A stretch of DNA of 19,434 nucleotides, taken from positions 1 through 19,434 of the IMG/VR virus record IMGVR_UViG_2778261454_000002; one strand, given 5' to 3'. The notes beneath the pieces are model-generated. The model was not told the DNA's origin, searched no databases, and saw nothing but the letters and a program-made list of their open reading frames with translations. This DNA comes from a virus. Taxonomy: Duplodnaviria; Heunggongvirae; Uroviricota; Caudoviricetes. This document shows positions 1 to 1,457 of the stretch, in pieces. Position numbers and translations under genes: made by a program. The number at the start of each line of letters is the position of its first letter. Position 1 is the first letter of the stretch.

Positions 1-96
1 ATCAACCAAACCAGCGCAATGCCTGAAAAAACTGACGTTCACTGGAGTGGTCGGTTTAGCGTTGCACCAATGCTCGATAGGATGTACCGTTTTTGA
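1..96 (+). pseudogene. dusA: 5' fragment of host tRNA-dihydrouridine synthase A gene, truncated by the prophage junction (window starts inside the ORF)
   Basis: Frame 1 from nt 1 reads INQTSAMPEKTDVHWSGRFSVAPMLD, which matches my recollection of the E. coli DusA N-terminus (...RFSVAPMLDWTDRHCRYF...). After the D codon at 76-78 it diverges (RMYRF) and stops at 94-96. Recalled from memory, not searched. Confidence 0.6.
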
Positions 97-221
97 AAAA
101 CAAGTAGTTATACACTTTGTGGGAGCCTATTGGGAACCCGGTGTTTTCATTTCAAGGTGTAATCCATGCGGGGCATCAGAATGAGATATAATGAGATTTT
201 TAGTGTTCCGCTTGAGAGTCT

Positions 222-758
222 ATGATGCTTACCCTAGACGAGATAGGTCAATCTGTACGTAACAATATCCAGTTGATTATTGATCATGTCGGCTTACCTC
301 TTGCTGTTGGTCCGCTCAGTGATGATGATTACAAGATTCTGTGTGGTGGCTATGGTGAGCTTGAATGGGACTATGCGTTAAGCACCTATGGCAACTCCAG
401 AGAAAAGTATGAGTTCTGCATAAAACTTGTTCAGCAAGGTCGGGTTCAGGGAATACCATCAGGAGCAGCAATTTGTGTTTATGGGGTTGAAGAAAACATC
501 TTTCGTATCCATATGATCGAAAGGTTTTCTAGAGAAGATGAATCTCACCCATTGAAAGGGCGCATGGTTTTACTCACTCTTATGAGTGCTTTTATATTTT
601 GTAAAGCTGTTGAATGTAAAGTTGTCCACATTGTAGAGCCAGTACCAGAACTGGTGCAGTATTACGAGTCTTTTGGTTTCCGCATGGAACAGTGCGGTTA
701 TGTGATGTCTGCAGTCATTGATGAGCTGCAGGATATCTTTCTTAAATTTGCTCAGTAG
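222..758 (+). CDS. Hypothetical protein, possible GNAT-fold acetyltransferase-like; cargo gene
   Basis: 178-aa ORF in opposite orientation to the early-left operon and AT-rich relative to the head genes. C-terminal VVHIVEPVPELVQYYESFGFRM resembles the GNAT beta5-alpha4 motif (..FYEKxGF..). TATAAT-like hexamer near 187-192. Fold call is weak. Confidence 0.5.
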   Translation: MMLTLDEIGQSVRNNIQLIIDHVGLPLAVGPLSDDDYKILCGGYGELEWDYALSTYGNSREKYEFCIKLVQQGRVQGIPSGAAICVYGVEENIFRIHMIERFSREDESHPLKGRMVLLTLMSAFIFCKAVECKVVHIVEPVPELVQYYESFGFRMEQCGYVMSAVIDELQDIFLKFAQ

Positions 759-954
759 GTATAGACGAGAAGGGTCTACAAATTGTAGGATACCCGTCCA
801 GATTACCTTAAAGGTACATCTATGGCAGTCGTTTTGTGCTTAAACTACTAAGAAACGATGTCACCAATCGACATGATCGATTGGCATAAGTTAGCTAAAC
901 AAGCTAGCTTTAAAGAGAGGGTTAGAGACGCCTTTACTGTCTCGGGAGTTTTCT

Positions 955-1128
955 ATGAAAGATCAAAAAGCAACCAAGCAACAGGTTAAGTTCGACACAA
1001 TGAAAGCATTCGCAGGTATGGGTGCTGCTGTTGAAGTTCTGATGAAGGCTGCTCCTAATGCGTTCACTCACGCTACTGTCTCTGGTAAAGAGCAGCAGGG
1101 TAAGCTTCGTCGTCGCAAAGCAGCATGA
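955..1128 (+). CDS. Small hypothetical protein (57 aa, Lys/Ala-rich)
   Basis: ATG preceded by GGAG about 8 nt upstream; ends 20 nt before a strong hairpin with T-run. Below the ORF-track length cutoff. An alternative overlapping small ORF starts near 858 in another frame. Confidence 0.35.
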   Translation: MKDQKATKQQVKFDTMKAFAGMGAAVEVLMKAAPNAFTHATVSGKEQQGKLRRRKAA

Positions 1129-1144
1129 TCATAGCTGGTGCTTT

Positions 1145-1178
1145 TTGAAAACCCGCCTTTAGGCGGGTTTTTTCTTTA
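1145..1178. terminator. Bidirectional rho-independent terminator between convergent genes
   Basis: AAACCCGCC-TTTA-GGCGGGTTT stem-loop followed by TTTTCTTT on the plus strand and by a T-run on the minus strand; sits between the plus ORF ending 1128 and the minus ORF ending 1176. Confidence 0.6.
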
Positions 1179-1457
1179 GTGATGTTCTTTGCCCTTCTGT
1201 TTGCCTGTTCTGACCTGTTCCCACTCGATACGTCCTTCTTCTCGTCTTTTGTCTATGTATTCCGCAAGATCCTGAATATTGATGCAACGTTTTGCTTTTT
1301 GTGATGTGCCGATGCGATATGTTGGAACGGGCAACTTACAAGCGTTTGCTTTTGCTTCTGCCGTGGCTGGACTCATGCCAAAGTACTTTTGGCTAACTGC
1401 TGAGAGTTCAATGTTAGGGGTATTGAATTCAGCCATCAGTAAAAACAAGGTGTTCAT
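1176..1457 (-). CDS. PrtN/AlpA-like small DNA-binding protein (putative excisionase or transcriptional activator)
   Basis: Track ORF 1176..1484; start trimmed to the ATG giving MNTLFLLMAEF..., which has GGAG about 8 nt upstream. Resembles the pyocin-activator PrtN family as recalled. Confidence 0.65.
   Translation of the reverse strand: MNTLFLLMAEFNTPNIELSAVSQKYFGMSPATAEAKANACKLPVPTYRIGTSQKAKRCINIQDLAEYIDKRREEGRIEWEQVRTGKQKGKEHH

Follow-up and report, generated by a model that had tools for sequence, protein, structure and literature searches.

A co-inherited prophage gene pair encoding an acidic GNAT-fold protein and a small basic partner, tentatively read as a toxin–antitoxin-like moron

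A gene for a GNAT-like protein and a very short, Lys/Ala-rich open reading frame (ORF) lie side by side just inside one end of a prophage. The locus raises the question of whether the two are chance neighbours or a linked pair, possibly of the toxin–antitoxin type, and, if they are such a pair, where the antitoxin is encoded. The window (the whole stretch of DNA that was analysed, 19,434 nucleotides) is an mEp460-like lambdoid prophage inserted into E. coli dusA at its 5' end; this integration mode has been described (PMC4482086). The displaced host dusA 5' end (1..78, plus strand; annotated in RefSeq as a truncated tRNA-dihydrouridine synthase) forms the outer prophage boundary and is oriented like the two genes. 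By aligning the window to the mEp460 and SKA5 attP regions, we placed the att crossover at ~70-78: the sequence is of host type until ~69, and identity to the attP of mEp460 and SKA5 runs from ATGCTCGAT on. The position beside att and the AT-rich composition proposed in the preliminary description were both confirmed, as G+C is 0.42 in the GNAT gene and 0.41 in the spacer/leader versus 0.49 in the window. On the other side lies a backbone gene outside the cassette, the PrtN-family excisionase (1176..1457, minus strand; Pfam PF11112, E = 4e-23; also assigned by PHROG and RefSeq), which closes the leftward early operon. Both ORFs are transcribed against this gene, the exonuclease and the remaining early-left genes, as had been claimed.

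The first gene had been described as a 178-aa ORF, and such an ORF is present at 222-758 on the plus strand; its start call is corrected here. The start is probably ATG 225 (225..758, 177 aa) and not ATG 222 (178 aa), because the Shine-Dalgarno sequence GAGAG (214-218) is found 6 nt ahead of ATG 225, the homologues start with ML(T/S)L, and the RefSeq start is at 225. All residue numbers given below are nevertheless counted from ATG 222. The gene belongs to PHROG 4350 (phrog_4350, E = 2e-103). That its product is GNAT-like was upheld by a high-confidence structure prediction (AlphaFold pLDDT 92.7), which has the b1-a1-a2-b2-b3-b4-a3-b5-a4-b6 order of the GNAT superfamily fold and GNAT proteins as its structural neighbours, the closest being the N-terminal protein acetyltransferases NatD, Naa20, Ard1 and RimI. 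Invariant in the family are E100 on strand b4 and Y148-x3-G152-F153 in helix a4; E100 and Y148 are candidate general base/acid residues for acyl transfer, and the AtaT Y144F structure among the fold matches implies a catalytic tyrosine at the place equivalent to Y148. In the position of motif A (Q/R-x-x-G-x-G/A, at the start of a3), we found P110-L111-K112-G113-R114-M115, in which only the central Gly fits, and H109, P110, L111, G113 and M115 are invariant across the family. Because this pyrophosphate-binding motif is degenerate (P-L-K-G-R-M), the use of acetyl-CoA is not assured. The protein is acidic, with a pI of 4.8 in the window and a pI of 4.3-4.9 and a net charge of -8 to -18 across all 43 alleles, which makes tRNA binding less probable. 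The gene has a dN/dS of ~0.1, with dS saturated.

At the sequence level, the family is nearly invisible. None of 30 family members matched a Pfam model of the GNAT clan at E <= 10, and the sole Pfam match among them was one to the unrelated DUF2556 (E = 0.2); ten remote relatives likewise lack any Pfam domain. The protein of the window has no NCBIfam match and no PDB sequence match, and 1.84 billion representatives, searched with a profile of the family, yielded only 92 proteins at E <= 0.001. Neither this protein nor its small neighbour matched any family of PADLOC-DB 2.0 at E <= 1, or any toxin–antitoxin or defence model in NCBIfam and Pfam, and the pair is not described in the literature that we searched by protein accessions, mEp460, and prophage GNAT toxin/defence systems.

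As the preliminary description had observed, no antitoxin is visible upstream, where only the att junction and promoter-like sequence precede the GNAT gene. The small ORF lies downstream, at 955..1128 on the plus strand, where the Lys/Ala-rich 57-aa frame had been reported; it encodes a basic protein (pI 10.5) of PHROG 2741 (phrog_2741, E = 6e-35). We fetched 123 small-ORF loci and found an intact GNAT gene directly upstream in 116 of them, corresponding to 43 distinct protein pairs. The small ORF is situated 100-250 nt downstream of the GNAT gene in all 116 GNAT loci, there are no GNAT-only loci (0/116), and the pairing extends to remote relatives and to one unannotated case. The charges of the two products are opposite in all 43 pairs and in a Shewanella relative (pI 9.6-10.8 for the partner versus 4.3-4.9 for the GNAT protein), although the two charges move together in one remote pair only. 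The picture drawn earlier, in which the two are independent cargo genes that became neighbours by chance and the inverted repeats between them are operators of a DNA-binding regulator, agrees with the annotation of both genes as merely hypothetical; we consider it very unlikely, given the co-inheritance in 116 of 116 loci, in four genomic contexts and down to 40% identity. Judged by this inheritance, the small ORF is no chance neighbour of the GNAT gene but its dedicated partner, always inherited together with it, and the antitoxin sought upstream is most plausibly this downstream ORF.

The cassette was found in at least four phage positions with unrelated backbones: (i) adjacent to att, (ii) between Q and the lysis genes, (iii) within a tail module, and (iv) between int and a tail fibre gene. 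About 7% of the complete E. coli genomes carry it (358/5426), O157, O145 and O111 pathogens among them, and it occurs further in prophages of Salmonella, Citrobacter, Serratia, Photorhabdus and Morganella, and it remains intact in decaying prophages. In the window, the stretch that comprises a candidate promoter (P1), the GNAT gene, a second promoter-like motif (P2) and an RNA leader (140..941, plus strand) is a swappable cargo module at an att-adjacent hotspot. In SKA5 and Lys8385Vzw, homology to the window stops at ~140 and returns at 942, and the interval is filled in these sister phages by a Panacea-domain gene pair (Pfam PF13274 match). The Panacea cargo at this hotspot is a toxin–antitoxin-like pair. 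The proposal that the locus is a moron was strengthened: the cassette has its own promoter-like elements and terminator, a lower G+C content and variable phage positions, and it stands as a self-contained unit of deviating base composition among unrelated backbone genes in four contexts.

The 3' end of the cassette (1117..1177, plus strand) consists of a stop-codon hairpin (1117-1125 with 1136-1144) and an intrinsic terminator, whose G+C-rich stem of 11 bp (1147-1172) precedes a T-run; this terminator serves the convergent excisionase gene too. The terminator had been called bidirectional, and it does fold on both strands (z = -3.2 and -4.7); on the minus strand, however, only four U follow the stem, so that this part of the claim holds less well. 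Since the terminator is conserved along with the cassette in other genomic contexts, it is, as judged from these alignments, part of the cassette and not of the phage backbone. At the 5' side, no terminator was predicted in 1-222 of the window, so read-through from the dusA promoter into the cassette is possible. In the Salmonella version of the cassette, a terminator insulates the GNAT gene from att; its counterpart in the window is mismatched and not significant.

The cassette carries two promoter-like elements. The first, the candidate P1 -10 element TATAAT (187..192, plus strand), is without a good -35 and was missed by the promoter-consensus scan; in all genomic contexts that were compared, a TAnAAT-like hexamer precedes the GNAT start by ~30-50 nt, and P1 would serve as the GNAT promoter. 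The second, P2 (762..791, plus strand), consists of TAGACG (762-767), 18 nt, and TAGGAT (786-791). The pattern TAGAC[AG]-N16-18-TA[GC][GC]AT was found in 40 of 45 distinct spacers, compared to a shuffled-sequence rate of 0.0003, and always begins 0-22 nt past the GNAT stop codon, while the sequence between the hexamers varies freely. Serratia, Photorhabdus and Xenorhabdus have the motif too, with 16-nt spacing and TGn. P2 may well be an internal promoter for the small ORF.

Downstream of P2, the spacer contains a structured RNA leader of the small ORF (800..943, plus strand), with hairpins H1 (800-821), H2 (864-884), H3 (888-910) and H4 (925-943); positions 822-861 are variable. None of 200 shuffles folds as well as the spacer itself (z = -3.98). 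In a consensus fold of 23 distinct leader sequences, 87% of the cells are paired, versus 22-43% when the partners are slid; double changes occur in six pairs, and many cells are G-U, which would be C-A on the other strand. The inverted repeats noticed in the preliminary description belong to these hairpins: CCAATCGA and TCGATTGG are indeed present at 864-871 and 877-884 and are 100% complementary, and AGCTAGCT at 902-909 falls in a 9-bp hairpin (888-896 with 902-910), of which it makes up the 3' arm. The suggestion that they are regulator binding sites loses ground to one of RNA structure, because the pairing is preserved on the plus strand by G-U wobble and compensatory changes; the repeats are probably hairpins of the RNA leader, not operators. 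Palindromes of this size can be operators, and in H2 the 3' arm (CGATTGG) shows strong sequence conservation. Against this, the changes in the arms are transitions that keep G-U pairs possible on the plus strand only, together with the compensatory changes; the repeats do not overlap P2, the conserved promoter-like motif, but lie ~70-110 nt past it; and neither protein has a detectable DNA-binding domain.

The leader has no significant Rfam 15 match on 759-954, and when 1-1400 was scanned, the sub-threshold matches centred on the terminator (1104-1180); no tRNA or tmRNA was found in 1-1400. Two further candidates for the leader were rejected. As a trans-acting antisense RNA to the GNAT start region, it would form a duplex with an energy no better than that of shuffles. 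It could also have been sRNA-17 of E. coli K1, which is reported to come from a 1.15-kb 'intergenic' region of an mEp460-like prophage, a region delimited once hypothetical genes had been removed (PMC7719688); the sRNA-17 sequence, taken from the primer and alignment tables of that paper, is absent from the window.

The 57-aa protein is predicted to form a single helix (residues 15-32) with disordered tails (AlphaFold pLDDT 66) and has no Pfam match. Its C-terminus reads ...RRRKAA, and the family always ends in a small nonpolar pair, -(A/V/T)A, usually -AA. The Shine-Dalgarno sequence GGGAG (944..948, plus strand), read from the sequence, adjoins hairpin H4, and a purine-rich element G(A/G)(A/G)G is kept at this place in all aligned loci. 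The ORF has a dN/dS of ~0.12, with a low dS of ~0.5 versus saturation in the GNAT gene; its nucleotide identity of 83-97% is the highest among the cassette segments and exceeds that of both flanks, and its codons are optimised (Fop 0.74 versus ~0.5 in other genes). An overlapping alternative ORF had been reported from 858 with 44 aa; the frame is present, with 43 aa instead. As a candidate gene it was rejected, being confined to the near-identical alleles of the window itself, and its ATG is not conserved.

The unusually conserved synonymous sites and the nucleotide identity above both flanks, along with the structured leader and the terminator hairpin, would also be expected if 955-1128 acted mainly as RNA (a dual-function or 3'-end-derived sRNA plus leader), the 57-codon frame being secondary or untranslated. 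We regard this as highly improbable. The dN/dS of the ORF is low and its frame is intact in homologues of 52-58 aa despite the differences in length; the motifs FDT, KAAP, QGK and -AA are kept at 21-40% protein identity, where the nucleotides no longer align, and the well-placed Shine-Dalgarno sequence is retained. In addition, the RNA belongs to no Rfam family and is not notably complementary to the region of the GNAT start.

The two genes differ in how they are lost. Among E. coli genomes, the small ORF was found in 562 and the GNAT gene in 358, so that ~200 have the small ORF but no working GNAT gene; in a Photorhabdus locus, the small ORF stands beside a GNAT pseudogene. It should be kept in mind that this loss asymmetry rests on only two independent events. 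The orphaned small ORFs show 0 synonymous and 6-7 nonsynonymous changes, some of them at the otherwise invariant K50 and A57, and their Shine-Dalgarno sequence is damaged; the paired copies, by comparison, have the dN/dS of ~0.12. From this pattern of substitutions, the small ORF is seen to decay where the GNAT gene was replaced.

These data bear on the possibility that the roles are reversed, i.e., that the toxic or effector activity resides in the small basic protein (for example, as a nucleic-acid or ribosome binder) and the GNAT protein is its antidote, by binding or by lysine acetylation. TopAI (YjhX)–YjhQ and enzyme-type (type VII) antitoxins provide precedents, an acidic GNAT protein and a basic, lysine-rich partner fit neutralisation through acetylation, and no other part of the cassette is as conserved as the small protein. 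Nevertheless, we find this arrangement improbable: the small ORF persists without a working GNAT gene in the ~200 E. coli genomes and the Photorhabdus locus, and it drifts there as if neutral, instead of being purged. The stronger expression signals of the small ORF (its own promoter motif and the high Fop) would be odd for a toxin, the protein is largely disordered, and the gene order is opposite to that of topAI-yjhQ.

Our leading interpretation, held tentatively, is that the cassette is a toxin–antitoxin-like moron with a reversed gene order. The predicted fold with its candidate catalytic residues, the strict pairing and mobility, the loss asymmetry, the opposite charges and the expression asymmetry support it, as do the intact state of the cassette in decaying prophages and the toxin–antitoxin-like sister cargo at the hotspot. 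Both promoters, physical binding, enzyme activity, toxicity, proteolysis and the biological role are parts that we infer, as follows. The cassette would be a self-sufficient moron whose two genes are passed on together between temperate phages of Enterobacterales, laid out as the weak P1, the GNAT gene, P2, a ~150-nt four-hairpin leader, the gene for the 57-aa -AA protein, and the terminator. The GNAT protein and the small protein most likely bind each other as a dedicated pair. The enzyme would be the harmful or effector component, probably acylating a basic target rather than tRNA, whereas the small protein would be its neutraliser, occupying the enzyme as an inhibitor or pseudo-substrate. 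Transcription from P1 plus P2 and the optimised codons may keep the small protein in excess, with the leader RNA tuning its synthesis. ClpX recognises C-terminal -LAA-type tails, and the ssrA-like C-terminal -AA tail would keep the small protein short-lived; if its synthesis were lost owing to phage attack, curing or stress, the enzyme would be freed. It is also possible, if doubtful, that the cassette represents an undescribed toxin–antitoxin/abortive-infection family of temperate enterobacterial phages, in which an acidic GNAT protein invisible to sequence models would acylate a basic target in the cell and be restrained by a disordered, basic pseudo-substrate with an ssrA-like tail, whose downstream gene has its own promoter and a new structured leader.

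Several observations speak against the toxin–antitoxin interpretation. Conservation is higher in the small protein than in the enzyme, whereas antitoxins usually outpace toxins, and type II operons do not usually have a 100-250 nt spacer that holds a long structured leader. The lack of a match to toxin–antitoxin or defence models, the degenerate motif A and the acidity of the enzyme, in which it departs from the tRNA-acetylating GNAT toxins, also count against it. A non-toxic enzyme–partner pair that serves in lysogenic conversion, defence or counter-defence, with neither protein harmful alone, has to be weighed as well; we rate it as somewhat unlikely. In such a pair, the small protein would be the substrate of the GNAT enzyme, acetylated at a lysine or at its N-terminus, or an activating or targeting subunit, and the two would act on a joint host or phage target. 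Strict pairing, opposite charges and shared mobility suit any obligate two-protein machine, the nearest structural neighbours are N-terminal protein acetyltransferases, and a small protein that is highly conserved and has optimised codons would be in keeping with an effector or substrate made in large amounts. Mutual dependence, however, predicts GNAT-only remnants as frequent as small-only ones, and we found none in 116 loci; moreover, the extra promoter and the degron-like tail of one partner are left unexplained, and no known system of this kind was matched in PADLOC or NCBIfam.

If the toxin–antitoxin interpretation is true, it adds a GNAT toxin–antitoxin architecture with reversed order, a tiny disordered partner, control by an RNA leader and an acidic enzyme with a non-tRNA target. 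None of the present sequence models or catalogues of defence systems picks up the enzyme family. The persistence of the cassette in decaying prophages suggests a host benefit or self-enforced retention. The dusA-adjacent hotspot, where the GNAT gene and leader were exchanged for the Panacea-domain pair and a decaying partner gene was left behind, offers a test case. The practical consequence is modest for the present.

Among known systems, the type II GNAT/RHH pairs (TacT–TacA, AtaT–AtaR, KacT–KacA and ItaT–ItaR) have the antitoxin gene upstream of, or overlapping with, the toxin gene, whereas here the partner is downstream, beyond a 100-250 nt structured leader and a promoter motif. Their partners carry a DUF1778/RHH domain, which the small protein lacks, and their toxins acetylate aminoacyl-tRNA, while the enzyme of the cassette is acidic, invisible to the Pfam GNAT models and degenerate in motif A. 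Identity to NatD/Naa40, Naa20, Ard1 and RimI is only 10-13%, with no sequence-level match; in comparison to these N-terminal acetyltransferases, the cassette protein has an extra N-terminal helix, and its b4–a3 loop of ~13 residues is acidic and apparently unusually long for a GNAT protein.

The TopAI–YjhQ system combines an 85-aa toxin with a 181-aa GNAT-family antitoxin (PMC4666372), and the topAI transcript has a regulatory upstream region (PMC12121999). The E. coli K-12 pair resembles the cassette in joining a small protein to a GNAT-family protein of ~180 aa and in its regulatory RNA leader. However, its small toxin is encoded first and the GNAT antitoxin second, whereas the GNAT gene is first in all 116 loci here; and its small protein is toxic, whereas the present evidence favours the small protein as the protective or dependent partner. 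In toxin-first type II systems (mqsRA, higBA and hicAB), an extra promoter for the antitoxin gene only leads to an excess of the neutraliser, and the antitoxins have a defined fold, bind DNA and act as repressors of the operon that encodes them. The cassette is similar in that the putative toxin gene comes first and an extra candidate promoter feeds the second gene; it differs in having a mostly disordered, basic 57-aa peptide and control that apparently resides in the RNA leader. Finally, the lambdoid morons (bor, lom and stx) are promoter–gene–terminator inserts of deviating composition, a concept of Juhala and Hendrix. The cassette occupies their classic sites, adjacent to att and between Q and the lysis genes, and is distinguished from them by its two genes, internal promoter-like motif and structured leader, and by its occurrence at four sites in unrelated backbones.

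The cassette lies just inside the prophage end, as had been proposed from the sequence. In an alignment with the attP regions of the phages mEp460 and SKA5, host-type dusA sequence extends to position ~69 and phage sequence starts at the shared ATGCTCGAT core. This crossover agrees with the published integration behaviour of dusA-specific integrases (PMC4482086); thus, the cassette is placed ~145 bases inside the left end. Many E. coli chromosomes, those of O145, O157 and O111 strains among them, match the first 1.5 kb of the window at 99.7-99.9% identity; their annotation of the region comprises a truncated gene for tRNA-dihydrouridine synthase, genes for two hypothetical proteins and a PrtN-family protein, and a 3'-5' exonuclease gene. 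Lambdoid phage mEp460 shares 98% identity with bases 80-1180 and carries the same cassette genes between integrase and excisionase. Domain and PHROG matches identify the neighbours of the cassette, both on the minus strand, as a PrtN-type excisionase and an Rv2179c-like exonuclease. The G+C content is 0.42 in the large ORF and 0.41 in the spacer, compared to 0.49 in the window. The preliminary description had found the region to fit a moron, and this assignment holds in every respect that can be examined in silico.

Both ORFs of that description (222-758 and 955-1128) and its terminator (hairpin and T-run at 1147-1172) are present. The large ORF is likelier to start at ATG 225 than at 222, because GAGAG is found 6 nt upstream, homologues begin with ML(T/S)L, and RefSeq uses 225. 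The small ORF matches PHROG 2741 (function unknown) and was found downstream in all 102 loci fetched via the large protein from genome collections, viral collections and contig look-ups. Conversely, 12 loci fetched via relatives of the small protein (Salmonella, Morganella, Serratia) have a 177-183-aa homologue of the large protein upstream. Altogether, both genes are intact in 116 loci, representing 43 distinct protein pairs. In E. coli and Salmonella, the cassette is located between the att site and excisionase; in Citrobacter, Serratia and phage Eeyore, it is found between the Q antiterminator and methylase/lysis genes; in Photorhabdus, it lies within a myovirus-type tail module; and in Morganella, it separates integrase from a tail fibre gene. 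The same layout was found in two remote relatives, one on an integrase-bearing island (profile E 5e-17) and one in Shewanella; both retain a 52-57-aa ORF ending in KAA and followed by a terminator. The cassette is established as a dedicated, mobile two-gene unit, which includes a promoter-like motif between the genes, a structured leader and a terminator of its own. In phage Eeyore (PP925821), a 53-aa partner ORF (MEMKKERLFDT...QGRRRVREAA; L128 4295-4456) is found downstream of the GNAT homologue. This ORF is unannotated in the GenBank record. Three of the four short ORFs annotated around it overlap the partner or its leader; the four have no counterpart in related cassettes and look spurious.

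The large protein has a predicted GNAT fold, which agrees with the preliminary description: the AlphaFold model (pLDDT 92.7, pTM 0.89; 30-sequence alignment as input) has the canonical GNAT strand/helix order, plus one extra helix at each end. With residues counted from ATG 222 (the numbering of the family alignment), the GNAT-like C-terminal motif noticed earlier corresponds to Y148-x3-G152-F153 in helix a4, invariant in the 30 sequences, as is E100 on strand b4. An invariant H109-P110-L111-x-G113-x-M115 replaces the usual Q/R-x-x-G-x-G/A loop, and the modelled protein is probably catalytically competent. Sequence searches gave little: PHROG 4350 (function unknown) is the sole match, there being none among Pfam, NCBIfam and PADLOC models; GNAT-clan Pfam models match 0 of 30 family members, even at E <= 10, and the family profile matches no PDB sequence. 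The database search returned 51 relatives, all from Enterobacterales except one Shewanella protein, some bearing automatic UniRef names of "N-acetyltransferase". When 1.84 billion representatives were searched exhaustively with a profile, only 92 proteins were recovered, and ten remote relatives that were checked lack Pfam domains. As judged from these searches, this is a small, isolated orphan family, and its cofactor loop is altered.

The two partners carry opposite charges. The net charge is -8 to -18 (pI 4.3-4.9) for the GNAT protein and +4 to +9 (pI 9.6-10.8) for the small protein in 43 of 43 pairs; the Shewanella relative falls in the same ranges. The remote pair of the integrase-bearing island (L124 2501-3339) is the sole case where both charges have shifted together, with a near-neutral GNAT (pI 6.6) and a 52-aa partner of pI 4.1 that still ends in PKAA. 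In the predicted model of the small protein (pLDDT 66), residues 15-32 form the only helix and the tails are disordered; FDT, KAAP and QGK/R are conserved motifs, and the chain always ends in two small nonpolar residues, mostly -AA. C-terminal tails of the -LAA type are recognised by ClpX.

In nucleotides, no part of the cassette is as conserved as the small ORF, which exceeds both flanks: its identity to the window is 83-97%, compared to 62-82% for the GNAT gene, 43-80% for the leader and 66-78% for the 3' end. Synonymous divergence of the small ORF (~0.5) is far below that of its flanks, the GNAT gene being saturated, and dN/dS is ~0.1 in both genes. The fraction of optimal codons is 0.74 in the small ORF and 0.47-0.59 in other window genes. 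These values suggest either very high expression or an added RNA-level constraint. A segment working mainly as RNA could share such a constraint; taking into account the low dN/dS and the conserved protein motifs, we regard this explanation as highly improbable.

Directly after the GNAT stop codon, the window has TAGACG-N18-TAGGAT (762-791). Of 45 distinct spacers, 40 contain the pattern TAGAC[AG]-N16-18-TA[GC][GC]AT, in each case <=22 nt from the stop codon (0.0003 in shuffles), and the sequence between the hexamers varies freely. The Serratia, Photorhabdus and Xenorhabdus versions have 16 nt between the hexamers and a TGn extension. We consider the conserved pattern as the footprint of a putative promoter (P2); a simple consensus promoter scan made no call at this site. 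RNA downstream of P2 folds better than every shuffle (z = -3.98), into plus-strand hairpins H1 (800-821), H2 (864-884), H3 (888-910) and H4 (925-943), the last adjoining the Shine-Dalgarno sequence GGGAG (944-948). The preliminary description had interpreted inverted repeats here as possible regulator binding sites. The repeats themselves are present: perfect 8-nt arms at 864-871 and 877-884 form H2, and AGCTAGCT at 902-909 is the 3' arm of H3. Among 23 distinct Enterobacteriaceae sequences, 87% of cells are paired; sliding the partners by 1-3 columns lowers this to 22-43%. Six leader pairs, four of them in H3, have changes on both sides. C-to-U or A-to-G changes are numerous; these preserve G-U pairing on the plus strand and would give mismatches on the other. 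Taken together, these pairing data argue for a plus-strand RNA element, rather than a protein-binding DNA palindrome. Two independent genes with DNA operators would account for the repeats as such; considering the strand-specific changes and the constant association of the genes, this is quite improbable. The alternative ORF from 858 also exists, with a length of 43 aa and not 44 as first stated; it is confined to the window's own alleles, and the idea that it is the expressed ORF fails.

The leader matches no Rfam family. In more distant cassettes its sequence differs, yet the spacer is again long and has a hairpin immediately ahead of the Shine-Dalgarno. RNAalifold also pairs an invariant AGAC (763-766, after the GNAT stop) with an invariant GUCU (939-942, before the Shine-Dalgarno). 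This pairing is available only in a read-through transcript from the GNAT gene, is not separable from local H4 and shows no covariation; it could close the whole leader and couple translation of both genes. The small RNA sRNA-17, reported for an E. coli K1 prophage similar to mEp460 (PMC7719688), was rejected as the leader, being from a different locus and absent from the window.

A TAnAAT-like hexamer is found ~30-50 nt upstream of the GNAT start in all contexts (TATAAT at 187-192 in the window), and in several phages it comes after the terminator of the preceding unit. The displaced 5' end of host dusA and its promoter are directed towards the cassette, and in E. coli no terminator is predicted ahead of the GNAT gene (window 1-222); therefore, read-through from the host dusA promoter is possible. 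At the corresponding position, the Salmonella version (L111 ~2161-2190) carries a G+C-rich hairpin of 8 bp and a U-run, and host-promoter capture may differ between the two lineages.

Loss of the two genes is asymmetric. The GNAT gene is never found without the small ORF; among E. coli genomes, the small ORF is present in 562 and the GNAT gene in 358. In all GNAT-less genomes examined, the interval 140-941 is replaced by a Panacea-domain gene (PF13274, E 2e-19) and a 128-139-aa gene, which looks like an exchange of one toxin-antitoxin-like cargo for another. The exchange boundaries are sharp, at ~140 and ~942 (window versus L003 2986-3974, L004 and L107-L110), and phages Lys8385Vzw and SKA5, as well as ~200 complete E. 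coli genomes, have the Panacea cargo at this dusA-adjacent hotspot. Some of these prophages carry a CoiA-annotated competence gene (~344 aa) between the small ORF and excisionase (L109 2826-3860, L110 2820-3854), by its position a second cargo layer of the same hotspot. Four orphan copies (L003 4014-4187, L107 2514-2687, L109 2514-2687, L110 2508-2681) differ from the window by 6-7 nonsynonymous and 0 synonymous substitutions; K50 and the terminal A57, invariant elsewhere, are among the residues hit, and in one copy, the Shine-Dalgarno is damaged as well. This indicates that the small ORF decays once the GNAT gene is lost; RefSeq still annotates the decaying copies as genes. In Photorhabdus temperata (L026 4100-4800), the GNAT gene is fragmented (truncated, frameshifted), and the small ORF and terminator are intact. 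Reversed roles, with a toxic small protein neutralised by the GNAT, have a precedent in TopAI-YjhQ (PMC4666372); here it is the small ORF that persists alone, and we consider such a reversal unlikely.

Prophages of E. coli O145 RM12581 (L001 8370-11233) and O157:H7 TW14359 (L123 2053-3178) are decaying around the cassette (IS600 insertion, split HD hydrolase, exonuclease pseudogene, methyltransferase with an internal stop); despite this, both cassette genes are intact, with identical protein sequences.

We tentatively interpret the cassette as a toxin-antitoxin-like or abortive-infection module with the toxin first. This reading is based on the loss asymmetry (one partner never alone, the other dispensable and drifting once orphaned), the extra expression signals of the second gene, a disordered, oppositely charged partner with an ssrA-like tail, and retention in degraded prophages. 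Known toxin-first systems use additional antitoxin promoters. The antitoxin, sought upstream in the preliminary description, is then probably the small ORF downstream. The strong acidity of the enzyme makes tRNA an unlikely target, as opposed to TacT or AtaT; a basic protein or polyamine-like molecule is more plausible, and the basic partner would act as a pseudo-substrate or inhibitor. The opposite charges would equally suit a non-toxic enzyme-substrate or enzyme-adaptor pair, a possible, though somewhat less likely, alternative in view of the loss asymmetry.

The cassette is a widespread, well-delimited and previously uncharacterised genetic unit; our literature search found no description of this pair. 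GNAT/RHH type II toxin-antitoxin systems are the closest in working, yet the cassette is not a member: it has no upstream RHH/DUF1778 gene, its enzyme is acidic and escapes GNAT sequence models, its partner belongs to a new family, its genes are in the reverse order, and the second gene is preceded by a long leader.
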